A DNA stretch of 64,000 nt from assembly GCA_964633975.1 (NCBI GenBank), contig CAZWKX010000001.1, positions 63,969-127,968 of the forward strand. The letters are read 5' to 3'. The DNA comes from an uncultured Acidimicrobiia bacterium (GTDB lineage Bacteria; Actinomycetota; Acidimicrobiia; Spongiisociales; UBA11373). Each line of letters begins with the position of its first letter. The stretch's first letter is position 1. Below the pieces are notes generated by a model. It did no database searches and was not told the DNA's origin. It saw only the letters and a program-made list of their open reading frames with translations. Below, one piece after another: positions 5,184 through 49,207 of the stretch. The translations under genes were made by a program, and so were the position numbers.

Positions 5184-6788
5184 CTAGAAGCTCGCGACTT
5201 CCGGAACCTGCCACGCCGACGCCGTCCCCGCGATGATCCGCCCCAGCGTCTCCCACACCTCCGAGCTGGCGATGTCTCCCCCCTGCAGCCAGGTCGCGAT
5301 CATCTGCTGCACGTCGTGCCGGCCGCGCAGACCGCCGTGGAATCCGGGAACCACAACCACGTCGACGCTCCCGTACTCGAGATCGCTCGGGTTGGTGACC
5401 GCGTCGGCAAGAGGAAGGATCACCACCTCCTCCACGTCGGGCCAGTCGTACAGAGTGCGGGCCAGCTCCTCTGCGTCACGGCGCAACGAGTCGGTGAAGG
5501 GCCCATCCGCGGACAGCTCGATCGGTGCCAACGAATCGATGAGCGCTCCCAGGGCCCGCAGCTGATAGCCGGCGACGACGCCCCTCCCCTCCTCACCCCA
5601 ATCCGGGTACGTGGCCCGGCCCGGTTCGACTATCGGGCTCAACAGCACGAGCCGATCGATGTCGGCGTCGGGATACCGATTGAGGAAAGCGATCGTCACC
5701 AGCGTGCCCTCGCTCTCGGCCACTATCGCCACCGGCTTTCCATGGCGCCGGGCCAAAGCGGTCACCTGTTCGTTCATGAGAACCGCGAGATCGGCTATGT
5801 CGGCATCGGTGGCCACGCCGGGATGCGACAGGGGACGCGCCTCGGCGTCGAGACCCACATAGGAGAACTGCTCTACGGCCAAATCCGGCGCGATCGCCGC
5901 CAGATCGTCCGCCTCGTCGCAGCAGCCGCTGGCAAAACCGGCCACGAGCAGCACGGTGTGGCCTCCTTGAAGCGTCTCGACCTGGCCCGCTCCCCCGGGA
6001 TCCTCAGTGGCGAAGGCGACAAAACCCAGCCGCGTGCCTCCGACGACGACCACAAACAAGACCGCGATGGCCACCACCGTTGCCGGCACCACCCGCAGCC
6101 GCCGTCCGGGGAGCCCGAGCACGATGGCCCGCACACTGTGATGCCAAGCCCAGGCGTTGAACAGGCCGACGACGGCGACGACCGACAGATCCAGCACGGC
6201 GCCGCGGCCGGCCACGGCGAGCGCGGCCAGGCTGAGCACGAGGAAGGAGAGCGCCATCCAGCCGACGGACCGGGCCGGAGGCAGGCGCCGCCACCATTCG
6301 CAATCGATGCCGCCGTGGTGAATGAGGAGGATGGTTGCAATGGCGGGAGGCAGCGCGGCGAAGAACACCCAGGACAGCGGGACCACCGCAGCACCGAAGA
6401 GGAGGGTGACCCACGGCGACAGCAGAACCACGGCGGCAACGGTGACCACAGCCGAATGCATCCAGGCGATCCAGAAACCGGGACGCTCCTCCCCGGCAGG
6501 CCAGGCCGATCGCACGAGCATGGCGGTCAGCAGCGACCGCAGAGCCACGAGCGCGACTAGGCCGAAGGCGAAGCTGAGAATCGAGCCGTGGAACACGAAG
6601 AGCCAGCGGAGATCGTGGAACGCGCCGAACGGGCCGAGTGCCGACACCTGAGGTGCCAGGCTCAGTCCCGACGGCATGCCGAGAAGCAACAGGACGATAC
6701 CCTCGGCCACCGGGACGCCCACCGCGAGCGCGAGGAGCGGCCGACGGTGCCAGAAGTCAGGCTCCAGCCAACGCATAGTCCCCCACAC
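5184..6788 (-). CDS. Polytopic membrane protein with C-terminal alpha/beta-hydrolase-like domain
   Basis: 534 aa. N-terminal ~290 aa hydrophobic (about 8 TM). C-terminal domain has HTVLLVAGF (oxyanion-strand-like) and AESEG (GxSxG-variant nucleophile elbow). Confidence 0.65.
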   Translation of the reverse strand: MWGTMRWLEPDFWHRRPLLALAVGVPVAEGIVLLLLGMPSGLSLAPQVSALGPFGAFHDLRWLFVFHGSILSFAFGLVALVALRSLLTAMLVRSAWPAGEERPGFWIAWMHSAVVTVAAVVLLSPWVTLLFGAAVVPLSWVFFAALPPAIATILLIHHGGIDCEWWRRLPPARSVGWMALSFLVLSLAALAVAGRGAVLDLSVVAVVGLFNAWAWHHSVRAIVLGLPGRRLRVVPATVVAIAVLFVVVVGGTRLGFVAFATEDPGGAGQVETLQGGHTVLLVAGFASGCCDEADDLAAIAPDLAVEQFSYVGLDAEARPLSHPGVATDADIADLAVLMNEQVTALARRHGKPVAIVAESEGTLVTIAFLNRYPDADIDRLVLLSPIVEPGRATYPDWGEEGRGVVAGYQLRALGALIDSLAPIELSADGPFTDSLRRDAEELARTLYDWPDVEEVVILPLADAVTNPSDLEYGSVDVVVVPGFHGGLRGRHDVQQMIATWLQGGDIASSEVWETLGRIIAGTASAWQVPEVASF

Positions 6789-8296: not shown

Positions 8297-9388
8297 GTGC
8301 CAAAGGATCTCGATGAGCTGCGCGAACGCATCCGCCGCATCGACGACCAGATACTCCGCCTGGTAGCCGAGCGCCTCGAGGCGGCGCGCGCCGCCGGCCG
8401 TCAGAAGCGAGAAGCCGGCGTGCCGCTGCGCGACTGGGACGTGGAGCGGGCAGTGCTGGACCGAGCCGCCCAGACCGCTGCCGAGCTTGGCCTCTCCCCA
8501 ACGACGGTCCGCTCGCTCATACAAGTGCTCATCGCCGCGGCCCGGGCAGAGCAGGAGCGCATCTCGTACTCCACCTACCAAGGCTCAGCCGAGAGCATCG
8601 CCGTCATCGGCGGCGAAGGCCGCATGGGGCGCTGGTTCGTCGATTTTTTTCGCAACCAAGGTCACCGAGTCTCGGTAAGCGATCCCGCCGATCCCGACAG
8701 CGCCTCCCTCGAGAATGCGACGGCCGGCACATCGCTCGCCGTCATCGCCACTCCCCCGGATGCCGTCCCCGGGGTGCTCGACCGCCTCGCTTCCTCCGGC
8801 TACCGGGGCACCGCCTTCGATATCGCCAGCCTCAAGGAGCACCTCCGTCCCGCGATCACCAGGGCCGCCGAGTCCGGGCTCTCGGTGACGAGCATCCACC
8901 CCATGTTCGGTCCCGACACGAAGACGCTGGCCGACCACGTCATCTGTGTGTGCGACTGTGGGGACACCCAGGCCGCCCACCGAGTCCGCGACCTCTTCAC
9001 CGACACCGCCGCCACGATCGTGGAGCTGTCCCTGGAAGAGCACGACCGCGTGATCCTCTACGTGCTCGGGCTCTCGCACCTGGTCAATCTCCTGTTCGCC
9101 AAGGTGCTGATGAACGGGAACGCCGAGTTCGCCAGCCTCGACCGGGTGGGCAGCACGACGTTCCGCGCCCAGGTGGAGACGGCCAGCACGGTCATCGGGG
9201 AGGATCCCGGGCTCTACTACATGATCCAGCGGCTGAACCCGTTCACCGCGGGCCTGTACGAAGCGCTCCGCCGCGAGTTCGACGAGCTGTCCGGATGGAT
9301 CCTCGACGACGATCGCGAGCACTTCACCGAGATGATGATGCGGGGCCGCGAATGGATGAGACGCCCCGAGGACCCCACCGGCGGATAG
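8297..9388 (+). CDS. tyrA: Bifunctional chorismate mutase / prephenate dehydrogenase (TyrA, T-protein-like)
   Basis: 363 aa with GTG start. N-terminal AroQ chorismate-mutase helix bundle (LDELRERIRRIDDQILRLVAERLEAARAAGRQK), then Rossmann IAVIGGEGRMGRWF and a prephenate-dehydrogenase core. Confidence 0.85.
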   Translation: MPKDLDELRERIRRIDDQILRLVAERLEAARAAGRQKREAGVPLRDWDVERAVLDRAAQTAAELGLSPTTVRSLIQVLIAAARAEQERISYSTYQGSAESIAVIGGEGRMGRWFVDFFRNQGHRVSVSDPADPDSASLENATAGTSLAVIATPPDAVPGVLDRLASSGYRGTAFDIASLKEHLRPAITRAAESGLSVTSIHPMFGPDTKTLADHVICVCDCGDTQAAHRVRDLFTDTAATIVELSLEEHDRVILYVLGLSHLVNLLFAKVLMNGNAEFASLDRVGSTTFRAQVETASTVIGEDPGLYYMIQRLNPFTAGLYEALRREFDELSGWILDDDREHFTEMMMRGREWMRRPEDPTGG

Positions 9389-9416
9389 CCGCCGGTCTCA
9401 CCCGGGAGCCCGGGGC
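9381..9416. terminator. Two adjacent GC hairpins between convergent tyrA and radical-SAM genes (putative bidirectional terminator)
   Basis: GGCGG-ATAG-CCGCC (9381-9394, includes the tyrA TAG stop) followed by CCCGGG-AG-CCCGGG (9401-9414). Confidence 0.3.
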
Positions 9417-9447
9417 AGGTCACACCCACCCGTGAGCGCGGAGCAGA

Positions 9448-10314
9448 TCACGCGGGACGCTGCCAACCGGCGGCGTGCCGCAGGTGCTTGGCGAAGTCGA
9501 ACGAGGCCCGCTCGAGCACGGCGTCGAGATCCTCGACATCGAGAAAGGGACCGTAGCTCACATACCTGTCGCCGACCGGGACCGTGAGGGTGCCGTCCGG
9601 GAACACCATGACGTAGAGCCTGTCGAGTGTCTCATGGCTCAGCCAGCTGATGCTGAAGAGGTGAGGAGTGGTCCCCACGCGCTCCTGCAGCTCGACGAAC
9701 TCGGCGGAGCTCACAACCAAGTCCTCCCAACTCACGTCCGCGCTCATCGAGCGAGGAAACGCCTGGAACACGTTGTAGAACAGGCGATTGGGCATGACTG
9801 CAGCCCGTCTGTCGAACAGCGCCACGATGTCGGGAACATGGTCGATGTTGTGCCGAGTCACCGGAGTCGCCACCTTGACGTCGACCGCCGGGTGCAGGGC
9901 CAGGATGTCGAGGGCCGCCATCACAGCGGTGAAGTGGCCGGCCTTCTTAGTCCGGGAGGACACCTCCTCGTTGGGCCCGTCCAGCGGGAGCGAGATGAGG
10001 TCGATGCAGGAGGCGTAGTTGTCGAGGAACCCGGCGGTCAGCTCGTCGCCGGTTGTGGAAAGGGCCACTTCCAGCCCGATATCGTCGGCCAGCCTCACGA
10101 GCGAGCCGATGTCGGCCCGCTTGAGTGGATCACCGCCGGTGAACACGACACGCCGGGCCCCGCTGGCGGCGATGCGGGCCACGATGGCCTCGGCCGTCTC
10201 GGTATCGACCTCTTCGACACCCTGAGGACCCCAGCAGTACACGCACTCCTCGTTGCACTCCGAGGTGACGTGGAAGTCGATGGTGGCCAGCCGAGGCATG
10301 TGACCCGATCCCAC
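9448..10314 (-). CDS. Radical SAM protein, single-cluster (no SPASM/twitch cysteines), MoaA/viperin-like motif
   Basis: 288 aa. CX3CX2C in IDFHVTSECNEECVYCWGP and GG[DE]P-type SAM motif VVFTGGDPL. Only one further Cys in the C-terminal 220 aa. Confidence 0.85.
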   Translation of the reverse strand: MGSGHMPRLATIDFHVTSECNEECVYCWGPQGVEEVDTETAEAIVARIAASGARRVVFTGGDPLKRADIGSLVRLADDIGLEVALSTTGDELTAGFLDNYASCIDLISLPLDGPNEEVSSRTKKAGHFTAVMAALDILALHPAVDVKVATPVTRHNIDHVPDIVALFDRRAAVMPNRLFYNVFQAFPRSMSADVSWEDLVVSSAEFVELQERVGTTPHLFSISWLSHETLDRLYVMVFPDGTLTVPVGDRYVSYGPFLDVEDLDAVLERASFDFAKHLRHAAGWQRPA

Positions 10315-10354
10315 CAGAGTGTACAGATCCCGCCCGCCGCCCCGGCATCAGGTC

Positions 10355-10966
10355 TCAGGCCCGCAGCAGGTAGATGCCGAAGGTCGAGCCGGCGGCGCCT
10401 GTTTGGCGCTCGACCACCAGCCCCGCATCCCGGGCCAGGCCGGGCACCCCGCCTGAGGCACGGAACGAGCGATACCCGGGCAGGTGGCCGCTGAGCGCCT
10501 CCAACCCAACACTCAGGACCCGGGCCGCCCCGGCTCTGAGCCCGCGCGCCGGCCCAGGATCGTGGTCGATCACGAGAACCCGCCCTCGGTGCCCTGCGAC
10601 CCGAGCCATCTCCCCAAGAGCGGCGCTGCGCCCATCCGCCGGGAGGGCGTGCAGCAGCGTCGCCGCCAGCACCAGATCGAAGGTGCCGGAGGCGAACGGG
10701 AGCCGAGCAGCATCTGCACATATGAGGGGGGCGTCACCCCCGAGTCGACGCCGGGCCTCCCCAAGCATGGCGCCGGACGTGTCGACTCCGAACACTCGGC
10801 AGCCCGCCTCGGCGTAGAGCGAGAGGTGGGCCCCGGTGCCACAGCCCACGTCGAGCACGGCCATGCCCGGCCGAGAAGGCGCCAGATCGAGCCCGGCACG
10901 GCGAAGGCCGCCGACAAAAGATCCGAGAAGTGGCTCGTAGAGCCGGGCGATCAGCGAGGCAGGCAC
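10355..10966 (-). CDS. Class I SAM-dependent methyltransferase
   Basis: 203 aa. Motif I VLDVGCGTGAHLSLYAEAGCRVFGVDTS, then an acidic-loop and motif II pattern. Ends 40 nt before the radical-SAM start (same strand). Confidence 0.85.
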   Translation of the reverse strand: MPASLIARLYEPLLGSFVGGLRRAGLDLAPSRPGMAVLDVGCGTGAHLSLYAEAGCRVFGVDTSGAMLGEARRRLGGDAPLICADAARLPFASGTFDLVLAATLLHALPADGRSAALGEMARVAGHRGRVLVIDHDPGPARGLRAGAARVLSVGLEALSGHLPGYRSFRASGGVPGLARDAGLVVERQTGAAGSTFGIYLLRA

Positions 10967-11054
10967 GAACCGAATTCAACCACCACCGGCCCGGCCCGGC
11001 AGGCAGGCCGCGTTGAGGGTCTGCCATCACGGAGACGCCAAGCGCCCGATCGCC

Positions 11055-11510
11055 CTACCAGATGTGAGGGCTCCAGTCGGCGGCCATGTCGGCACTGCAA
11101 TCCTGGAGCTCGGCCCGCCCGTAGAGGATCGCTTCGTCGGCAGCCCGATACACGGCATACCACTCCCCGCCGGCGGACTGTCCGAACAGACAGATCTCGT
11201 CGTTCTCCGGGCTCTCTCCGAGGCGCAGGGCAACCGTGCCCACCGGGTGTTCGGGCGAGTAGTAGACGACGACGGGCTCCAAGGGCTCTAGGAGACTGGT
11301 GTCATCGGTGTACTCGCCGTTCTCGAGGTAATACAGCTCGACGGCCAGCAAGCCCGAGCGAAGGTCGGCCTGTATCTCCTTCTCGCGTGCTCTATCGACG
11401 ATCCCGGCGAACACCGGGGTCGCCACCGCCACCAACACTCCGATGATGAGCACGACGATCATCATCTCGACGAGCGTGAAGCCCTGTTCCGCCTTCCTCA
11501 GCGCCCGCAT
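11055..11510 (-). CDS. Type IV pilin / pseudopilin-like protein (prepilin-type N-terminal cleavage/methylation domain)
   Basis: 151 aa. MRALRKAEQG|FTLVEMMIVVLIIGVLVAVATPVF is the canonical class III signal (G|F, Glu+5, hydrophobic helix). Confidence 0.75.
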   Translation of the reverse strand: MRALRKAEQGFTLVEMMIVVLIIGVLVAVATPVFAGIVDRAREKEIQADLRSGLLAVELYYLENGEYTDDTSLLEPLEPVVVYYSPEHPVGTVALRLGESPENDEICLFGQSAGGEWYAVYRAADEAILYGRAELQDCSADMAADWSPHIW

Positions 11511-15560: not shown

Positions 15561-17789
15561 CTACACGATGATCTCGCAGCTGCTGTAGCTCGAGGCCTGC
15601 GTGCAGTAGTCCGTGGCGGTGCCGCCGATGTCGGTATCGGTGCCCGACCCACCGTACAGCTCGTCGGCGCCCCCATTACCGCGCAGGGTGTCGTTGCCGC
15701 TGCCGCCGTAGAGCAGGTCGTTTCCGGTGCCGCCGCTGATGGAGTCGTTGTGGTCGTTGCCGTAGAGCTTGTCGTCGTCGCCGCCGCCATCGATGACGTC
15801 GTCGCCCAAACCGCCGCGGATCTTGTCTCTGCCGCTGTTCCCGACGATGTCGTCGTCGCCGGCGCCACCCTTGATGCGATCCCGGCCCGCGCCTCCCCTG
15901 ATGACGTCGGTGCCCCTTCCCCCGTTGATCTTGTCCGTGCCCTGGTTGCCCATGATCACGTCAAAGCCATCGTCGGCGATGATGGTGTCATTGCCCTTTC
16001 CGCCGGAGATGGTGTCGTTGCCGTCGCCGCCACAGATGAGATCGTTGCCGTCCAGGCCGCTGATCTCATCGTCGCCGTCCAGGCCGCTGATCACATCCCG
16101 GCCGCCGGTGCCGACGAGCACGTCATCGCCCGCCGTGCCCACGATGGTGGCCGGTCGCCCGTTGCAGGTCTCCGAGGGCGGAGCGCCCAGGTCGAGGACG
16201 CCGATGCCGTACTCGTTGTCGGGGCCCGCCGGGCCGGCGTCATGAGTCCGGCTGGCCACCGCGGCGCGCAGCTCCGCCGGCGACATCCACGGATAGACCG
16301 AGAGCAGCAAGGCCGCCGCCCCGGCGGCGTGGGGCGACGAGGCCGAGGTGCCGCCGAACGACCCGTAGGTGAAGTTGGCTACGCCGTCCGGCCCCGAGAC
16401 ATCGGGTTTGGTCCGGCTGTCGATCGTGGGGCCCTCCGAGGAATACGGCTCGACGGCTCCACTTCCATACCAGACTGCCCCGACCGAGTAGATGTTGGGC
16501 ACCGTCGAGTTGTCGTTGAGGCTGCGCGACGTGACGAAGTACTCCAGGTCGTCGGGGCTGAGCACAAACACGTCCATGTCGGGCGTCGCCGACCCGGCGT
16601 CGCCGCGCCGAATCTCGATGGCATACGTGCGTGCTCCCCCCGTCGGGTTCGTGTAATCGATCACCTCCGTCGGGGGCTGAGTGCCGGTCTGGGGGCCGGT
16701 GGACCAATCGACCTCGGCGCCCCCTCCGGTGATGTCGAGGAGGTAGAGGTCGAAGTCGTTGCCGGATGTGGGCCATTCGTCCCACTTGAGGGCGACGTAC
16801 ACCCGGTCGCCTCCGTCGACAGTGAAGGTGTCGCGCTCGTCGGCGCCGGAGAACTCATGGATGCCGTTACCACCGGGCCCGGGCTCGCTGTCGCTGAAGT
16901 TGCCCGACCAATGGCGCAGCGCGTAGTTGCCAGCCGAGTTGAACCAGGCGATGCCGTAGCTCTCCGCCTTGTTCGACAGCGTGAGGAAGGGCCCGGTGCC
17001 GTCGCCCCGCTCGGTGTTGAACCAGCCCACCGAGTGGTTGATGACGTCGACGCCTTGGGCGTCCATGTAGTCGAGCGCTGTGTTGATGTCGGAGATCTCG
17101 TCGACGCAGATGAGATAGAGCTGGGCGTCCGGAGCCATCTCATGTACCACCTCGGCCACCGCGGTGCCGTGCGGGGTGCCCCCGCCGATGCCGGCGGAGC
17201 AGTAGTTCTGGGTGGTGAGCGAGGCGGGAAGGTCGCCGCTGGCCTGCGCCGCGGCGAGCTCCTTAAAGCCGAGGTCGAGGACGGCAACCTTGACGCCGGC
17301 GCCGGTGATGCCGGCGCCGTGCCAGTCGTCGGCGTCGGTGAAAGCCACTCCCTGGCCGGTCACAGCCTCGGCGATGGGCTGCACCGGGGACTGGACCCAT
17401 CGCACCGCAGCGTCCTCGGAGAGCGCCTGCAGCGACCCAAGCGGCACCACCGCCGCAATGAAACCCAGCCCGCCGCCCGAATGGGTGACCTCACCCCCGA
17501 CGACCTGAACGGCGGCAACCGCAGCCGCCTCATCGCCGGCCGGATACACCTCGACGGCGACGTTGCCGGCATCCACGTCCAACCCCAGGCCCTCGGCAAA
17601 GGCCAGGCCCGCCGACGCCCCCTGCTCGGCCACAGCCTGCTGGGCGCGGTAGAGCCGGGAATCGAGTCCGGGTGGATTGGTCTTGGCGGAGGCACCCTCG
17701 TCTGCATAACCCGTCGCCGGGAGCACGGCGAGCAGAGCGATGGCGGTCGAGAGCAGAACGGTCTTGCGGAGGGTGGGGAAACGCCTCAT
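15561..17789 (-). CDS. Secreted subtilisin-like serine protease (S8) fused to C-terminal RTX/hemolysin-type Ca-binding repeats
   Basis: Start taken at MRRFPTLRKTVLLSTAIALLAVLPATGYA (signal). S8 triad contexts VAVLDLGF, HGTAVAEV and GTSASSPHAAGAAALL. C-terminal ~200 aa of GGxGxD nonapeptide repeats (GGDGNDTISGGKGNDTI...). Confidence 0.85.
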   Translation of the reverse strand: MRRFPTLRKTVLLSTAIALLAVLPATGYADEGASAKTNPPGLDSRLYRAQQAVAEQGASAGLAFAEGLGLDVDAGNVAVEVYPAGDEAAAVAAVQVVGGEVTHSGGGLGFIAAVVPLGSLQALSEDAAVRWVQSPVQPIAEAVTGQGVAFTDADDWHGAGITGAGVKVAVLDLGFKELAAAQASGDLPASLTTQNYCSAGIGGGTPHGTAVAEVVHEMAPDAQLYLICVDEISDINTALDYMDAQGVDVINHSVGWFNTERGDGTGPFLTLSNKAESYGIAWFNSAGNYALRHWSGNFSDSEPGPGGNGIHEFSGADERDTFTVDGGDRVYVALKWDEWPTSGNDFDLYLLDITGGGAEVDWSTGPQTGTQPPTEVIDYTNPTGGARTYAIEIRRGDAGSATPDMDVFVLSPDDLEYFVTSRSLNDNSTVPNIYSVGAVWYGSGAVEPYSSEGPTIDSRTKPDVSGPDGVANFTYGSFGGTSASSPHAAGAAALLLSVYPWMSPAELRAAVASRTHDAGPAGPDNEYGIGVLDLGAPPSETCNGRPATIVGTAGDDVLVGTGGRDVISGLDGDDEISGLDGNDLICGGDGNDTISGGKGNDTIIADDGFDVIMGNQGTDKINGGRGTDVIRGGAGRDRIKGGAGDDDIVGNSGRDKIRGGLGDDVIDGGGDDDKLYGNDHNDSISGGTGNDLLYGGSGNDTLRGNGGADELYGGSGTDTDIGGTATDYCTQASSYSSCEIIV

Positions 17790-17899
17790 CTCTCCTCTAT
17801 CGGATCGTGAGGGTTGAAGGATAGAGCACAACCACCCTACGTAGGCAACTCCCCACCGCTTGCGGCCGGGATTCCTGCGGTTAGCGTTGACGCTAGATC

Positions 17900-19387
17900 A
17901 TGCCCCGATTGCGCAGCTCGATAGCCCTGATTGCGGTCGCTGCCGTCCTGTCGGGCTCTCCAGCCGGCGCCGCAGAGAATCCCCGCTCCTTCACCATCGC
18001 GGCAGCCGGCGACATCCTTATCCACGGCCGGGTGGCCGAGTATGCCCACGGGTACGCGGACGGCGACGGCTACGACTTCAGCTCGATGTTCACCCCGATC
18101 GAGCCGTGGATCAGCGAGGCCGACCTCGCCATATGCCACCTGGAGAGCGCCCTGTCGGCAGACGACACCCACCTCTCCTTTGAACCCTACGTCTACGTCG
18201 CCCCCTACGAGATCGCCGATGCCATCGCCGGCGCCGGCTACGACGACTGCTCGCTGGCCAGCAACCACTCCACCGACGGTGGCGAGCGCGGAGTGCGTGA
18301 AGCTATCGAGGTACTCGACTCCCTGGGCATCCGTCACGCCGGAACAGGCTGCAGCGAGGCGGAGCGCCTGCCCAACATCTACGAGGTCAAAGGCGTCGCC
18401 GTGGCACACATCTCGTACACCTACGGAGTCAGCGGCCCCTCCCGACTCGGCGAGTGTGTGGTGAACGTCATCAACGCCGACGCCATCCTCGCCGACGCCC
18501 GCTGGGCCCGGCAGAACGGGGCCGAGTTCGTCATCGTCAGCCTGCACTGGGGCGTGGAGAACAACCCTCCCCCCACGCTGGAACAGCAGACGCTCGCCGA
18601 AACCCTGTTGAACTCCCCCGACGTCGATCTCATCCTGGGGCACCACGCTCACGTGATCCAGCCCATCGACTGGATCAACGGCAAGCTCGTCGTCTACGGG
18701 ATGGGCAACCACCTGTCCAACCAGAACTCCGTCTACGGACCCAAGTACTACGCCACCGAAGACGGCGTCGTTGTGCACGTCACCGTCACCGAACAACCCG
18801 ATGGACACTTCGCCACCACCGACGTGCAGTTCACCCCGACCTGGGTCAACTGGCACGGCTACGACATCCTCCCCGTTGCCTTCAACCTCGCCTACGGCCC
18901 CGAGGAGCTGCGCCCCGAGCTTGAGGCGTCCATGCAGCGCACCGTCGACCGCTTCACCATGCTCACGGACGCCGAGACCACCCCGGCCGAGTGGCCCGCC
19001 GTGATGTGCTGGGGCCGGGCTGCCACCATCATCGGCACCAACGGCCCCGATCTGCTGATCGGCACTGCCGGGGATGACGTGATCGTGGGACGCGGAGGAG
19101 GCGACACCATCTGGGGCCACGGGGGCGACGACTACATCTGCGGACGCGACGGCAGCGACTACATCGCCGGAGGCACAGGCGACGATGTCATCAGCGGAGA
19201 CGAGGGCCACGACTTCATCCACGGCGACACTGGCGCCGACTCCCTGTGGGGGGACGCCGGCGCCGACACTCTGGATGGCGGCGCCGGCGACGACTCCCTC
19301 CACGGCGGCTCCGGAGACCTGCTCATCGGCGGGGCCGGCGCCGACACTTGCCGTGACGGTCTTCAAGACGTGTCCTGCAATCCTTGA
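17900..19387 (+). CDS. Secreted CapA/PGA_cap (metallophosphatase-like) domain protein with C-terminal RTX repeats, paralog 1
   Basis: 495 aa. Signal MPRLRSSIALIAVAAVLSGSPAGA. PGA_cap-like core (YDFSSMFTPIEPWISEADLAICHLE...LASNHSTDGGERG...IVSLHWGVE...LGHHAHVIQPIDWINGKLVVYGMGN). C-terminal GGxGxD repeats. Confidence 0.8.
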   Translation: MPRLRSSIALIAVAAVLSGSPAGAAENPRSFTIAAAGDILIHGRVAEYAHGYADGDGYDFSSMFTPIEPWISEADLAICHLESALSADDTHLSFEPYVYVAPYEIADAIAGAGYDDCSLASNHSTDGGERGVREAIEVLDSLGIRHAGTGCSEAERLPNIYEVKGVAVAHISYTYGVSGPSRLGECVVNVINADAILADARWARQNGAEFVIVSLHWGVENNPPPTLEQQTLAETLLNSPDVDLILGHHAHVIQPIDWINGKLVVYGMGNHLSNQNSVYGPKYYATEDGVVVHVTVTEQPDGHFATTDVQFTPTWVNWHGYDILPVAFNLAYGPEELRPELEASMQRTVDRFTMLTDAETTPAEWPAVMCWGRAATIIGTNGPDLLIGTAGDDVIVGRGGGDTIWGHGGDDYICGRDGSDYIAGGTGDDVISGDEGHDFIHGDTGADSLWGDAGADTLDGGAGDDSLHGGSGDLLIGGAGADTCRDGLQDVSCNP

Positions 19388-19429: not shown

Positions 19430-20929
19430 ATGAGAAGGACTCTGGCCATCGTCGCAGCACTCGCCCTCGCCGCGAGCACAGCTCCGAATGCCGCGGCACG
19501 CACGGAGCCGCGTTCGTTCACCATCGCCGCCGCCGGAGACATCATCATCCACGAAGCGATAGCCGTCCAAGCCCACTACAACGCACGAGGCGCCGGATAC
19601 GACTTCACCCCTATGTTCGAGCAGATAGAGCCGTGGATCGGAGACGCCGACCTCGCCATCTGCCACCTCGACGGAACCCTATCGGTAAACGACGTCGGCC
19701 TCTCATACCAGCACGGCTACGACCACCCCGCCTACTTCTACGGCCCCGGGGAGATGGCCGAGGCGATCGCCGCCGCCGGATTCGACACCTGCTCAACCGC
19801 AGGCAATCACTCCTGGGACAACGGCCGGCGCGGCCTGGAGGACACGCTGGTGATGCTGGATCGCGCCGGGGTGGCCCACGCCGGAACGGCGCGCAACCTG
19901 GAGGAGACGCGACCAGGGCTCCACGATGTCGACGGCGTCACCGTCGCCCACATCGCCTACTCGATGTCGATGAACGCCGGGCTCAGGCAGGAGCCGTCGT
20001 GGGCGGTGAACGTGATAGACGCCCAGGCCATCCTCGCCGACGCCGCCTGGGCCCGGGAGCAGGGCGCGGACTTCGTCGTGGTGAGCCTGCACTGGGGCGA
20101 GCAGTACGAGACGGAGCCGAGCCCGGATCAACGAGCCATGGCCGAAACCCTGCTTGCCTCTCCCGACATCGACGTGCTGCTCGGCCACCACGCTCATACC
20201 GTGCAGCCCATCGACTGGATCAACGGCAAGCTCGTGGTCTACGGCATGGGTGACTTCCTCACCAACATCCGAGGACCCTCCGGCGGCGGGTCCGGCGTCA
20301 TCGTGCACATGACCATCACCGAGCAGCCCGACGGGCGGTTCGCCACCAGCGACGTCCAGTTCACCCCCACCGCAGTGGACCCCTGGACCAAGGCGGTGCT
20401 ACCAGTCTCCTACACCCTGGCCTACGGCCCGGAGCGGCTGCGACCGGAGCTGGAAACCTTGTGGGACCGAACCATCGAAGGCCTCACCATGCTCACCGAG
20501 GCCGACACCACGCCGCCGGACTGGTCCCCACTGCTGTGCCGCGGCCAGATGGCCACCATCGTCGGCACCCATGCGCCCGACCTCCTGGTGGGCACCCCCT
20601 ACGACGACGTGATCGTCGGGCTCGACGGGGGCGACACCATCTGGGGCCACAGCGGTAACGACCTCATCTGCGGGGGCAAGGGCGACGACCACGTTGCCGG
20701 AGGAACCGGCAACGACAACGTCTACGGGGATCGAGGAGACGATTCCCTCCACGGCGACACGGGCGACGACACCCTGTGGGGCGACGCCGGCAACGACATG
20801 CTCGAGGGAGGCGCCGGAGGCGACACGCTGTGGGCCTCCTTGCCGGACGACACGCTCTACCCGGGCAGTGGGTACGACTCGTGCTACGACGGCGCCGGCT
20901 CGGTGCCCTGCACCCCCTTCTTGCCGTGA
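19430..20929 (+). CDS. Secreted CapA/PGA_cap domain protein with RTX repeats, paralog 2
   Basis: 499 aa, same architecture as paralog 1. Long stretches of near-identical DNA with it (e.g. atcgactggatcaacggcaagctcgt, ggcgacaccatctggggccac). Confidence 0.8.
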   Translation: MRRTLAIVAALALAASTAPNAAARTEPRSFTIAAAGDIIIHEAIAVQAHYNARGAGYDFTPMFEQIEPWIGDADLAICHLDGTLSVNDVGLSYQHGYDHPAYFYGPGEMAEAIAAAGFDTCSTAGNHSWDNGRRGLEDTLVMLDRAGVAHAGTARNLEETRPGLHDVDGVTVAHIAYSMSMNAGLRQEPSWAVNVIDAQAILADAAWAREQGADFVVVSLHWGEQYETEPSPDQRAMAETLLASPDIDVLLGHHAHTVQPIDWINGKLVVYGMGDFLTNIRGPSGGGSGVIVHMTITEQPDGRFATSDVQFTPTAVDPWTKAVLPVSYTLAYGPERLRPELETLWDRTIEGLTMLTEADTTPPDWSPLLCRGQMATIVGTHAPDLLVGTPYDDVIVGLDGGDTIWGHSGNDLICGGKGDDHVAGGTGNDNVYGDRGDDSLHGDTGDDTLWGDAGNDMLEGGAGGDTLWASLPDDTLYPGSGYDSCYDGAGSVPCTPFLP

Positions 20930-21649: not shown

Positions 21650-23206
21650 ATGACGAGGAAAGCCCTGGCCTTCACCGCCGCCTCGCTGGTTGTGGCCGCC
21701 ATCGCCGCACCCGGGGCTGCGGCCGAGACCGAGCCGCGCTCTTTCACCATCGCCGCCACCGGCGACATCCTCGTGATGAGGAGCATGGCCGACACCGCCG
21801 CCTGGAACGCAGGCGGCGTGGGCTACGACTTCACCCCGATGGTGGAGGCCATAGAGCCGTGGATCGGCGACGCCGACCTGGCCATCTGCCACATTGAGGG
21901 CCCTCTGTCGGCGGACGACACCGGCCTGGTCTACGAGGCCCCCGGCGTGGTCTTCCCCCTCTTCAATGGCCCAGGGGACATAGCCGATGCGATCGCCGCC
22001 GCCGGTTTCGACACGTGCTCGACCGCCAACAACCACTCCTGGGACGAGGGCTGGGAAGGCCTTCAGGAGACCCTAGAGGTGCTAGATCGTGCCGGGGTCG
22101 ACCACGCCGGCACGGCGCGCACGCTCGAGGAGCGCCTGCCCAACTTGTACGTGCTCAACGGCGTCACCGTGGCCCACATCGCTTACTCGATACAGGTGAA
22201 CCCGCCTCTGATGCAAGAGCCCGAGTGGACGGTCAACGTCATCGACCCCGACGCCATCCTTACAGACGCCCGCTGGGCCAGGGAGAACGGGGCCGAGTTC
22301 GTCATCGTCAGCCTCCATTGGGGTGAGGGCTACCAAGTGGAGCCGACCGACGACCAGTACGACCTGGCCGAGACACTGCTGGCCTCCCCCGACATCGACG
22401 TGCTGGTCGGTCATCACACCCATACCGTGCAGCCCGTCGACTGGATCAACGGCAAGCTCGTCGTCTACGGCATGGGCGATTTCCTAACCGACATACGCAA
22501 GCCCGCCGGCGGAGGAGACGGGGTGATCGTGCACCTGACCGTCACCGAGCAGCCGAATGGCCGCTTCGTGACCAGCAGCGTGGAGTTCACCCCGATCTGG
22601 GTCGAGCCGGTGCACAAGACGGTGCTGCCCGTCGACTACACGCTTACCCACGGCCCCGGCTGGCTCCAAGCCGAGCTGGGGATCTCGCGAGAACGGGTCT
22701 TGCGCAATCTGACCATGTTCGAGGATGCCGTCACCACGCCGGCGGACTGGCCCGCGCTGCTGTGCCACGGCCGGCTGGCGACCATCGTGGGCACTCACAA
22801 TGCCGACCTCCTCATCGGCTCCCCGGGCGACGACGTGATCGTCGGCCTTGGCGGCGGCGACACGATCTGGGGCCACGGCGGCGACGACCTCATCTGCGGC
22901 GGTGACGGCGACGACCACATCGCCGGAGGTACCGGAGCCGATACGCTCGAAGGTGATGACGGCGACGACGTCTTGCACGGCGACACCGGCTCCGACACCA
23001 TCTGGGGTGGCGGCGGCGGCGACGCTCTCGAAGGCGGCGGCGACGACGATCTTCTCTACGGTGGGACCGGCGACGACCTCCTATATGGCAGCGGCGGCAA
23101 CGACACTCTTGAGGGTGGTGAGGGCAGCAACATCCTCTGGGGACACGGCGGCGACGACACCCTGGTCAGCACGTCGAACAGCGACGTGCTCTTCGACGAC
23201 ACCTGA
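21650..23206 (+). CDS. Secreted CapA/PGA_cap domain protein with RTX repeats, paralog 3
   Basis: 518 aa. Signal MTRKALAFTAASLVVAAIAAPGAAA. Same PGA_cap core and a longer GGxGxD repeat tail. Confidence 0.8.
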   Translation: MTRKALAFTAASLVVAAIAAPGAAAETEPRSFTIAATGDILVMRSMADTAAWNAGGVGYDFTPMVEAIEPWIGDADLAICHIEGPLSADDTGLVYEAPGVVFPLFNGPGDIADAIAAAGFDTCSTANNHSWDEGWEGLQETLEVLDRAGVDHAGTARTLEERLPNLYVLNGVTVAHIAYSIQVNPPLMQEPEWTVNVIDPDAILTDARWARENGAEFVIVSLHWGEGYQVEPTDDQYDLAETLLASPDIDVLVGHHTHTVQPVDWINGKLVVYGMGDFLTDIRKPAGGGDGVIVHLTVTEQPNGRFVTSSVEFTPIWVEPVHKTVLPVDYTLTHGPGWLQAELGISRERVLRNLTMFEDAVTTPADWPALLCHGRLATIVGTHNADLLIGSPGDDVIVGLGGGDTIWGHGGDDLICGGDGDDHIAGGTGADTLEGDDGDDVLHGDTGSDTIWGGGGGDALEGGGDDDLLYGGTGDDLLYGSGGNDTLEGGEGSNILWGHGGDDTLVSTSNSDVLFDDT

Positions 23207-47764: not shown

Positions 47765-49207
47765 TCAGTCGTAGATGCCCACCAGGTAGCAGTCTCCTTC
47801 GCGGACCTCACAGAGGAATGCGCCGGCCGAGGTAACGATCTGGTAGCGGTCGGCGTGCTGCTCGCCATCCCACCAGCGCCCGGTGCGCCGCCAGGGCCCG
47901 GCCCAGTTGCGAACCTCTTCCCAGCGGCTCCCCAGCCGTATACGAACGGGGAACCCGTCATCCCACTCCACCTCCACCCGGCAGGGCGGGGGCACGAGCG
48001 CGGGTGCGGGATCGGGCAGGCGGCCCGGCCAAGGCGCTTTCGGGTCGTGCACCGGTTGCGGTGCAGGCTCACCCCAACGATGCCAGCGGACCCGCTCGCC
48101 CGGCTCCCTGCCTCCCTGCGGCACCGCTTGGAGCACGGCGTCGGGCCCCACGAGGACCTGGGCGCGAGCCAGGGCGCGGCGGGCCCCCACCTCCGAGGCG
48201 GCATCCTCGCCGAAACACATCTGACGCCCCGAATCGGAGCGGTCACCGGGAACGAGTCGCAACCGGGCCATGCCCCCGGGAATACCGCCCCCCTCCACCC
48301 AGGCCCGCAGCTGCCACCGGACCCGCTCTGCTATCTCACCCTCGGTGAAAGGATCGGCGCTGCGCCAGGTGCGGGACCGAACCTCACCTGCCGCCGACAT
48401 GGCCTCCACCACCACGAGGTGCGGAATCCCCGGGCCGACGGCTTCGAGGAGCCGGTGTGCCAGCGACTTAGCGGCGAACGCCGCCTGCTCCAGGTCCCGC
48501 AGCGGCGGGTCGAAACGCTCCTCGACCGCCACATCCTGCGGCAACGATCGGGGAGACACCTCCCGGTCCTCGCCGCTGGCCAGCCGATACGCTTCCAGGC
48601 CGATTCTGCCGAAGCGGGACGCCACGGCCTCACGAGGCAGCGCCGCCAGATCCCCCAGCGTGCTGATCCCCAGCCAACGGAAGGTATCGACGATCTCGGA
48701 CACCCCGAGTGTGGCGATGTCGAGGCCGGCGATGAAACCCTCGGTGTCGGCGACCATGGTCTCGCCTTCGGCCGCAGCGCGAGCGGCAAAAGGGCCGTCG
48801 GCGAGGCCGAGCCGGGCGCCGGCTGCCACCTCCCTTACCGCTCGAGCCACGCAGGCAACGAGTGGCTCCTCGCCCCCGTAATAGCGAACGGCTCCCGACA
48901 CGTCGAGGAAGAGCAGCCCCGGTTCGGCCACCTCGACACCGGGAGCCACCGTCTCCACGGCTCGCGCCACCGCCTCAAAAGCAGCCGCCTCGGCGCCGGG
49001 GTCGGCGGGCAGGGTGGCAACCGCCGGACATAGGGTCTCGGCGCGGCGACGCGGCATGCCCACCCGGACGCCGGCGGCGACGGCCAACGCGTTGGCTGCA
49101 GTCACCATCCCGTCGGGGCCAACCACCTGGCAGGGCTCATCCGACGGCGCGTCCGGCCTCCGTAGCGGCCAGCTGGGAAACCACACGCACAACGTCCGTG
49201 CCCTCAT
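47765..49207 (-). CDS. imuB: ImuB (Y-family polymerase-like mutasome subunit)
   Basis: 480 aa. N-terminal MRARTLCVWFPSWPLRR...AANALAVAAGVRVGMPRRRAETLCP is the hallmark ImuB start. UmuC-like fold. Directly downstream of imuA'. Confidence 0.85.
   Translation of the reverse strand: MRARTLCVWFPSWPLRRPDAPSDEPCQVVGPDGMVTAANALAVAAGVRVGMPRRRAETLCPAVATLPADPGAEAAAFEAVARAVETVAPGVEVAEPGLLFLDVSGAVRYYGGEEPLVACVARAVREVAAGARLGLADGPFAARAAAEGETMVADTEGFIAGLDIATLGVSEIVDTFRWLGISTLGDLAALPREAVASRFGRIGLEAYRLASGEDREVSPRSLPQDVAVEERFDPPLRDLEQAAFAAKSLAHRLLEAVGPGIPHLVVVEAMSAAGEVRSRTWRSADPFTEGEIAERVRWQLRAWVEGGGIPGGMARLRLVPGDRSDSGRQMCFGEDAASEVGARRALARAQVLVGPDAVLQAVPQGGREPGERVRWHRWGEPAPQPVHDPKAPWPGRLPDPAPALVPPPCRVEVEWDDGFPVRIRLGSRWEEVRNWAGPWRRTGRWWDGEQHADRYQIVTSAGAFLCEVREGDCYLVGIYD

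Follow-up and report, generated by a model that had tools for sequence, protein, structure and literature searches.

What does a short radical S-adenosylmethionine (SAM) enzyme do when its closest structural relatives are the antiviral viperins, and do the genes beside it have any part in its work? This question is raised by a minus-strand gene within 64,000 nt of DNA, here called the window, from an uncultured Acidimicrobiia bacterium (contig CAZWKX010000001.1 of assembly GCA_964633975.1). Genes for a SAM methyltransferase, a type IV pilin-like protein and an Lrp/AsnC-family regulator lie next to it on the same strand. An earlier reading made from the letters and their translations alone (the sequence-only reading) had grouped the radical SAM, methyltransferase and pilin-like genes as a possible modification module, or alternatively proposed a prokaryotic viperin (pVip)-like defence enzyme that lacks the usual kinase partner. 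Viperin is among the few immune enzymes common to humans and bacteria, while the roles of its non-immune relatives are, to our knowledge, largely unknown. Our analyses place the protein in a distinct and uncharacterised family, for which we coin the name F1. On balance we consider it probable that F1 is a clade of viperin-fold radical SAM enzymes that act on an anionic, nucleotide-like small molecule and are functionally unrelated to the genes next door.

The catalytic signature described from the sequence is in place, with both the motif IDFHVTSECNEECVYCWGP (C20, C24 and C27) and GGDP (residues 60–63) found in the radical SAM protein. The whole protein contains four cysteines (C20, C24, C27 and C103), and therefore a single cluster with neither a SPASM nor a twitch auxiliary cluster, as had been proposed; Pfam likewise gave no SPASM match. 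Among curated family models in NCBIfam and PADLOC, pVip profiles are the only ones that span the entire protein. NCBIfam viperin_w_prok (NF038283) aligns residues 11–277 to profile positions 3–276 of 281 with 72.6 bits, and the PADLOC pVip models match over the full length at E 1.4e-26 and 6.5e-24. Viperins were also the best hits when the sequence was searched against solved structures (E ~5e-8). An AlphaFold2 model computed from an alignment of 26 family members was confident (predicted local distance difference test 90.9, predicted template modelling (TM) score 0.90), and the first 23 matches to it in a Foldseek search of the PDB were all viperins. The best of these, mouse viperin with CTP (6q2p), aligned at E 3.6e-18 with TM 0.82/0.81 and a root-mean-square deviation (rmsd) of 2.9 Å over 294 aligned columns, while the best non-viperin structures (GDGT-MAS, DesII, SkfB and MoaA) reached query-normalised TM values of 0.58–0.71. 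Profile alignment of F1 to six genuine viperins with hhalign gave a probability of 99.7% and E 1.4e-26 over 263 columns, including the C-terminal third.

Together the model and the alignments indicate a predicted full-length viperin-type partial barrel with its C-terminal extension. Viperins and F1 have this architecture in common at a length of about 280 aa, along with one CxxxCxxC cluster and a GGE/DP SAM-binding motif, which is GGEP in viperins and GGDP in F1. The viperin-like architecture suggested by the sequence-only reading is thus borne out for the fold and for distant homology. When viperin, MoaA, QueE and PflA-type models and structures were compared, the nearest relatives by profile and by structure were viperins, and no confident match to a housekeeping cofactor enzyme emerged for the radical SAM protein.

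Two other identities are brought up by the same searches. The first is a MoaA-type GTP 3′,8-cyclase, suggested by weak NCBIfam profile matches and by the name that NCBI gives to homologue P0034, “cyclic pyranopterin monophosphate synthase 1”. MoaA belongs to the same radical SAM megacluster, has an N-terminal CxxxCxxC motif and acts on a nucleotide; however, it also has a second, C-terminal [4Fe-4S] cluster held by three cysteines and a different C-terminal half, both of which F1 lacks. With four cysteines in total there is no second C-terminal cluster, TIGR02666 reaches 51.1 bits against a cut-off of 284.05 over residues 15–170 only, and MoaA structures match at TM ~0.6 with an rmsd of ~9 Å. 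We regard this identity as next to impossible.

The second is an enzyme that modifies a macromolecule, whether RNA, protein or peptide, and shares the viperin scaffold by chance. AhbD, StsB, MftC and similar maturases have the top NCBIfam E-values, housekeeping enzymes that modify RNA or proteins are typically encoded by such a solitary, conserved gene, and one distant relative on an archaeal contig sits among ribosomal and RNA-polymerase genes. However, the maturase matches are confined to the N-terminal core (residues ~12–207): the AhbD, StsB, MftC, MoaA, PqqE and NirJ profiles all align with this common core only and far below their cut-offs (78 against 500 bits for AhbD). The protein has no SPASM or twitch domain, and neither a recognition element of ribosomally synthesised and post-translationally modified peptides nor a nearby precursor gene was found. 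Its C-terminal third aligns instead with the substrate-closing extension of viperins, and a macromolecular substrate appears unlikely. An Ahb/siroheme identity was also considered and rejected: AhbD gave the top NCBIfam E-value, but the match covers the common core and the protein lacks a SPASM domain. AhbA and AhbB are AsnC-like proteins, but the neighbouring Lrp protein scored 20 bits as AhbB against a 125-bit cut-off.

Viperin-like as it is, the radical SAM protein stands outside the viperin (pVip) family proper. Its 72.6 bits fall well below the NF038283 cut-off of 180, and NCBI calls F1 homologues just “radical SAM protein”. Our viperin reference set comprised mouse viperin and six plasmid-borne prokaryotic proteins. 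Five of the latter, from Nostoc, Methanomethylovorans hollandica, Pseudoalteromonas, Anabaena and Thiodictyon, are named “viperin family antiviral radical SAM protein” by PGAP; the sixth, a kinase-adjacent protein of Sphaerospermopsis, is annotated as moaA/nifB/pqqE family and clusters with the PGAP-named viperins. A neighbour-joining tree was built over 273 columns from these 7 viperins, 15 F1 members, 37 next-nearest relatives and MftC as outgroup. The viperin clade was recovered in all 200 bootstraps and the F1 clade in 193, while F1 and viperins grouped together in two. F1 members and viperins are on average 21% identical. The window protein is identical at 15 of the 36 columns that are invariant across the seven viperins, most of them generic radical SAM positions. 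The other 21 differ in F1, including N77, N158, S180, S183, R194, N222, W246-K247, E293 and N295, and R347, which is kept in six of the seven viperins, is replaced as well.

A map of the substrate pocket (mouse viperin numbering, with the window protein residue in parentheses) separates what F1 has in common with viperins from what it has changed. Retained are H79 (H15), D182 (D112), H201 (H127), K220 (K147), Q250 (Q184) and Y302 (Y234), and K120 is conservatively exchanged (R55). R245 is retained according to hhalign (R177), while MAFFT puts F179 there. Changed are N77 (D13), N122 (V57), N158 (T88), N222 (A149), W246-K247 (Y180-N181), R347 (H280) and C314 (P246), the last being Asn in most prokaryotic viperins. 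N77, N158, N222, K247 and R347 reportedly contact the triphosphate or ribose in the viperin structures of Fenwick 2020 and Lachowicz 2021, and the roles given here to viperin residues other than C314 and K319 are likewise those reported for mouse viperin with CTP. Because the replacement residues are conserved inside F1, the pocket is re-lined and not decayed. The residue at the C314 position stabilises the base, and roles of C314 and K319 in the β8 loop of viperin have been described (Shomar et al., bioRxiv 10.1101/2023.09.13.557418).

Around both groups extends a wider cloud of viperin-like proteins at ~30% identity, mostly ~280 aa long and named simply “radical SAM protein” by NCBI. All 40 aligned proteins, of which 37 are such relatives, match the viperin model at E <= 1e-5 (best E 7e-50). 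W246-K247 and N158 persist in the ~30% relatives but are Y-N and T in F1; F1 is one tight clade inside the cloud, set off by T88, Y180-N181 and H280. The genomic settings of the relatives are mixed. Some of the relatives are fused to TIR, cytidylyltransferase or REC-PRTase-CE domains, and one lies beside a PfkB kinase and a type III restriction-modification system.

F1 has none of the partners or fusions seen in viperin-related proteins outside pVip, namely OpnA of the Ophion system, an Escherichia coli plasmid operon and the TIR, cytidylyltransferase and PRTase-CE proteins. The Ophion system combines radical SAM, PHP and PRTase components (bioRxiv 10.1101/2025.09.30.679545), and the relation of OpnA to F1 is drawn from this description and not from sequence. 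The E. coli operon is carried by an IncF plasmid and encodes a radical SAM protein that is the best plasmid match to the query (27% identity, E 6e-21) and has Asp at the N77 position, as F1 does. With its neighbouring genes (Table 1), the operon has the appearance of a viperin-like defence cassette, but PGAP does not name the encoded radical SAM protein a viperin, and viperin H79, R245 and Y302 are missing from it.

F1 itself is compact and well conserved. Its members are 43–80% identical to one another, with ~18 representatives at E < 1e-30 in a library clustered at 50% identity and the next tier at ~30% identity. The 90% library holds >1000 homologues, of which the best 120 are 63–100% identical to the query, and a scan of one genome per species returned 56 F1 loci at 49–79% identity. 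Acidimicrobiia metagenome-assembled genomes (MAGs) account for most of these loci; the rest bear the labels Gemmatimonadota, Anaerolineales or Chloroflexota or, in a few cases, a proteobacterial one, and some of these phylum labels may be binning errors. Forty positions are invariant over 16 F1 members that reach down to 43% identity with the query. Relative to the closest syntenic orthologue (locus L001), the ratio of nonsynonymous to synonymous substitution rates (dN/dS) is 0.18 at a dS of 0.66, and the gene is under purifying selection. No F1 member was found among 2.9 million viral contigs, and plasmid and phage collections contained distant matches only, all below 60% identity and at most ~31% among the plasmid matches listed.

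One F1 sub-lineage carries an N-terminal PNPOx-like flavin-binding domain of ~150 aa, joined to an F1 enzyme that is typical in other respects and giving a fused protein of 439 aa. Three sequence variants of the fusion were recovered (proteins P0121, P0294 and P0295), and no stand-alone homologue of the fused domain was found near other F1 genes. Such a fusion would fit a built-in electron donor and says nothing about which substrate is used.

If the neighbouring genes worked with F1, they should recur beside it. We surveyed them by tblastn of the window neighbours against the 56 loci and by all-against-all clustering of open reading frames (ORFs) from these loci plus the window. A module of radical SAM enzyme, methyltransferase and pilin-like protein, modifying the pilin or making a methylated small molecule, would fit the co-orientation of the genes, their short gaps (40–55 nt and 88 nt) and the lack of any terminator-like site found between them. 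The same arrangement occurs in L001, where the methyltransferase, pilin-like and Lrp genes all flank a radical SAM gene of 79% identity. However, L001 is the only such locus, and because the whole region is syntenic with the window in this close relative (neighbours 71–91% identical), the shared gene order is functionally uninformative. In L006 and L049 a methyltransferase orthologue lies ~2 kb off, behind other genes; in L060, which shares its contig with L006, genes for DUF4328 and an acyl-CoA dehydrogenase come between the methyltransferase and the radical SAM gene, and a pilin gene is missing. Neither gene was found beside F1 by tblastn at the ~50 remaining loci.

The two proposed partners have little that would tie them to F1. 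The methyltransferase is below every NCBIfam cut-off (best DVU_1556, 75.8 against 155) and is a generic UbiE/COQ5-like class I enzyme, a neighbour and not a conserved partner. The pilin-like gene carries a prepilin motif by two models (N_methyl PF07963, 34.7 bits against 21.2; TIGR02532, 30.3 against 16.3) and resembles GspG in NCBIfam across its N-terminus only. A Pfam scan of 41 of the 43 predicted window genes showed no pilus or type II secretion assembly gene, which makes the pilin-like gene an orphan here, with assembly genes possible elsewhere in the genome. The closeness of the three genes is a local accident. A functional module is very unlikely, and the trio put forward by the sequence-only reading, for which missing synteny in related genomes had been named as refuting, is refuted on these terms, since the arrangement does not recur outside L001. 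This removes a false lead.

ORF clustering across the 56 loci and the window brought out no genuine conserved neighbour of F1. Several candidates were examined and set aside. Large clusters that seemed conserved and overlapped the radical SAM gene proved to be this same high-GC DNA read as ORFs in alternative frames. A second, unrelated methyltransferase of 300 aa lies ~1 kb off in six loci with varying orientation, and large AAA/TPR regulators recur near F1 just within Anaerolineales; both were judged lineage synteny. The single recurrent neighbour is the Lrp regulator, whose orthologues (72–91% identity) lie upstream of F1 in the window and L001 and ~0.4 kb downstream of it in L010 and L020. 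Since this amounts to four related loci of 57, in two gene orders, the lead is weak, and Lrp may at most be a candidate regulator of F1. Elsewhere in the cloud, an AsnC regulator gene (L073:3409-3897) is divergent from a distant viperin-like relative on a Nanoarchaeota contig, and protein P0191 joins a TIR and a radical SAM domain to a region that weakly matches an AsnC ligand-binding domain. The recurrence of Lrp/AsnC proteins beside viperin-like radical SAM genes may be chance.

Five F1 contexts were annotated, and no two are alike. They are metabolic or transport-related and comprise, respectively, RND, MacB and AI-2E transporters; a PemK toxin, F420H2 quinone reductase, MscS channel and SLH protein; a heliorhodopsin, PlsC-like acyltransferase and MFS transporters; an acyl-CoA dehydrogenase and DUF4328; and a sigma-70 factor, Ada and Lrp. 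At L059:7087-7854 a heliorhodopsin gene lies directly upstream of F1 in divergent orientation, and a PlsC-type acyltransferase gene overlaps the F1 stop by 4 nt. The genes rimP-nusA-infB, pnp, ribF, proS and ispG mark the window as core chromosome. F1 is a solitary chromosomal gene without a conserved operon partner and without a defence-island or mobile context.

This setting bears on the strongest competitor, a genuine solo viperin that converts nucleoside triphosphates (NTPs) into chain-terminating 3′-deoxy-3′,4′-didehydro-NTPs (ddhNTPs) as an anti-phage defence, without a kinase partner. The full-length PADLOC pVip matches speak for it, and an automated defence annotator would probably call the gene pVip. 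So do the viperin fold of the AlphaFold model and the retention of H15, R55, K147, R177, Q184 and Y234. PADLOC also covers kinase-free viperins with a model of their own (PDLC02903, “Viperins not associated with kinases”), and among the five PGAP-named loci two lack an annotated kinase neighbour; a deoxynucleoside kinase is present in two of the five. The counter-evidence is the score below the viperin cut-off, the two joint bootstraps in 200, and the 21 of 36 viperin-invariant positions changed, together with R347 exchanged for His and the base-contacting Asn of prokaryotic viperins for Pro.

Context separates the groups further. The Sphaerospermopsis viperin homologue adjoins a thymidylate kinase, and at most viperin loci fetched a transposase, an integrase or a type I restriction enzyme is encoded close by. 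F1 loci, in contrast, show no kinase, Nudix, restriction-modification or transposase context, and neither the 63 F1 loci (798 kb) nor the window contain homologues of the viperin-associated deoxynucleoside and thymidylate kinases or of NudI/Nudix proteins. The association of viperin/pVip with kinases, defence islands or mobile elements does not extend to F1, which keeps a syntenic chromosomal position and 60–80% identity across genera at the dN/dS given above. We consider a solo viperin unlikely. The suggestion of a pVip lacking its kinase was not supported: the protein scores under the viperin cut-off, branches apart from the viperins and occurs in ordinary chromosomal contexts, with most of the pocket residues specific to viperins lost.

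What remains is a viperin-fold enzyme with a substrate of its own. Radical SAM enzymes cleave SAM reductively to a 5′-deoxyadenosyl radical, and an F1 enzyme would do the same; this radical would then take a hydrogen atom from the substrate that sits in the barrel. R55, K147, R177, H15 and Y234, the basic and aromatic residues that F1 keeps, would suit an anionic, phosphate-bearing, nucleotide-like ligand. Loss of the residues at N77, N158, N222, K247, R347 and the base-contacting Asn suggests a substrate or binding mode unlike viperin's NTP. Because some basic and catalytic viperin positions are kept and others are replaced by F1-conserved residues, the substrate is most likely a small, nucleotide-like molecule that is anionic, carries phosphate and is bound in another way than the NTP of viperin. 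The chemistry could be viperin-like, with hydrogen abstraction followed by elimination or reduction.

Several points weigh against this assignment. K147, R55, R177, Y234 and H15 are also compatible with true NTP binding and hence with ddhNTP synthesis. The residue mapping comes from sequence and profile alignments without superposed coordinates, and MAFFT and hhalign conflict at R245. The tree is neighbour-joining over 273 columns with a modest sample. Finally, the loci were gathered through exact peptide patterns, and for this reason the synteny sample is biased towards close F1 members.

A more specific and more tentative version of the preferred reading, a distinct viperin-fold clade with its own nucleotide-like substrate, makes F1 a non-immune housekeeping branch of the viperin scaffold in marine and sediment Acidimicrobiia, Gemmatimonadota and Anaerolineales. 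There it would be a chromosomal enzyme that carries out radical chemistry of the viperin kind on some other nucleotide-like metabolite or cofactor precursor, in some lineages with electrons from the fused PNPOx-type flavin domain. We regard this version as possible but doubtful. Were it true, F1 would give insight into the metabolic background out of which the antiviral ddhNTP synthases were recruited, and a new radical SAM reaction would probably come with it.

The gene is ordinary-looking yet uncharacterised, is unlikely to be a defence viperin, and so far shows nothing mechanistically surprising. F1 is nonetheless a tight, well-delimited family that is easy to recognise, and because it combines the viperin fold with a re-lined pocket and lacks a defence context, it is a clean target in the search for a new radical SAM reaction and useful for asking how antiviral viperin activity arose. 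It also carries a warning for defence censuses of Actinomycetota MAGs, in which F1-like families can be miscalled as pVip because PADLOC-type profiles match the window protein over its full length at E 1e-26.

Table 1 Features of the window and of the loci compared with it. Positions without a locus prefix refer to the window.
Feature	Location	Strand	Remarks
Radical SAM gene (F1)	9448-10314	-	ORF of 288 aa, GTG start at 10314; Pfam Radical_SAM E 5.9e-18
CxxxCxxC codons, C20-N-E-E-C24-V-Y-C27, [4Fe-4S] ligands	10234-10257	-	Read from translation; invariant in all F1 members and aligned relatives
GGDP codons, G60-G61-D62-P63, SAM-binding motif	10126-10137	-	F1-invariant; aligns with viperin G125-G126-E127-P128
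Class I SAM methyltransferase, 203 aa	10355-10966	-	Pfam Methyltransf_25 E 2.3e-21
Type IV pilin-like/pseudopilin-like protein, 151 aa	11055-11510	-	Prepilin motif G|FTLVE; N_methyl
Lrp/AsnC-family regulator, 157 aa	11593-12066	-	Pfam HTH_AsnC-type and AsnC_trans_reg
Bifunctional chorismate mutase/prephenate dehydrogenase	8297-9388	+	Pfam CM_2, PDH_N and PDH_C; convergent, downstream of radical SAM gene
Inverted repeat CCCGG-GCT-CCGGG	9400-9420		Short, GC-rich; inside the 59-nt convergent gap
Lrp orthologues near F1	L010 ~9215-9748; L020 ~5551-6009
PNPOx-F1 fusion	L070:3315-4634; L071:2727-4046		P0294 on two contigs, from JGI and ENA samples
E. coli IncF plasmid operon, NZ_CP045714.1	L065:3980-5977		288-aa radical SAM protein, deoxynucleoside kinase, NudI; flanking toxin-antitoxin genes
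S8 subtilase	15561-17831	-	Nine RTX calcium-binding repeats
Three tandem ~500-aa paralogues	17900-19387; 19430-20929; 21650-23206	+	PGA_cap (CapA-like, poly-gamma-glutamate capsule synthesis) and RTX repeats
DnaE-type polymerase III alpha, 1092 aa	23213-26491	-
Fusion protein, 760 aa	41820-44102	-	5-formyltetrahydrofolate cyclo-ligase and complete phosphoglucomutase/phosphomannomutase
ImuB-like (IMS family)	47765-49207	-

The layout of the locus (Table 1) agrees with the first description of four co-oriented minus-strand ORFs, with correct gaps of 40 nt between the radical SAM and methyltransferase genes and 88 nt between the methyltransferase and pilin-like genes. Residue numbers of the radical SAM protein follow the 288-aa ORF with its GTG start. 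Because all homologues begin at the internal Met6 (MP.VAT), the ATG at 10299 is probably the true start, with a product of 283 aa; measured from it, the gap to the methyltransferase is 55 nt. All four ORFs are real genes. The GC content at third codon positions (GC3) is 0.85–0.86 in the radical SAM, pilin-like and Lrp genes and matches the neighbouring genes, while the methyltransferase failed the GC3 filter and owes its status as a gene to the Pfam match and a 71% identical orthologue in L001.

On the downstream side, the convergent chorismate mutase/prephenate dehydrogenase gene (NF008400 156 bits, under its cut-off of 273) marks the end of the radical SAM transcription unit. The inverted repeat in the intervening gap may be a bidirectional terminator without a T-tract, and a consensus terminator scan did not report it.

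Farther along the window, other genes stand apart from this locus. The S8 subtilase and the three tandem CapA-like paralogues carry RTX repeats. The cyclo-ligase/mutase fusion gene adjoins genes for a family 2 glycosyltransferase, a DUF2079 membrane protein and an acyltransferase. The DnaE-type and ImuB-like genes, ~21 kb apart, may be parts of a DnaE2/ImuB mutagenesis system.

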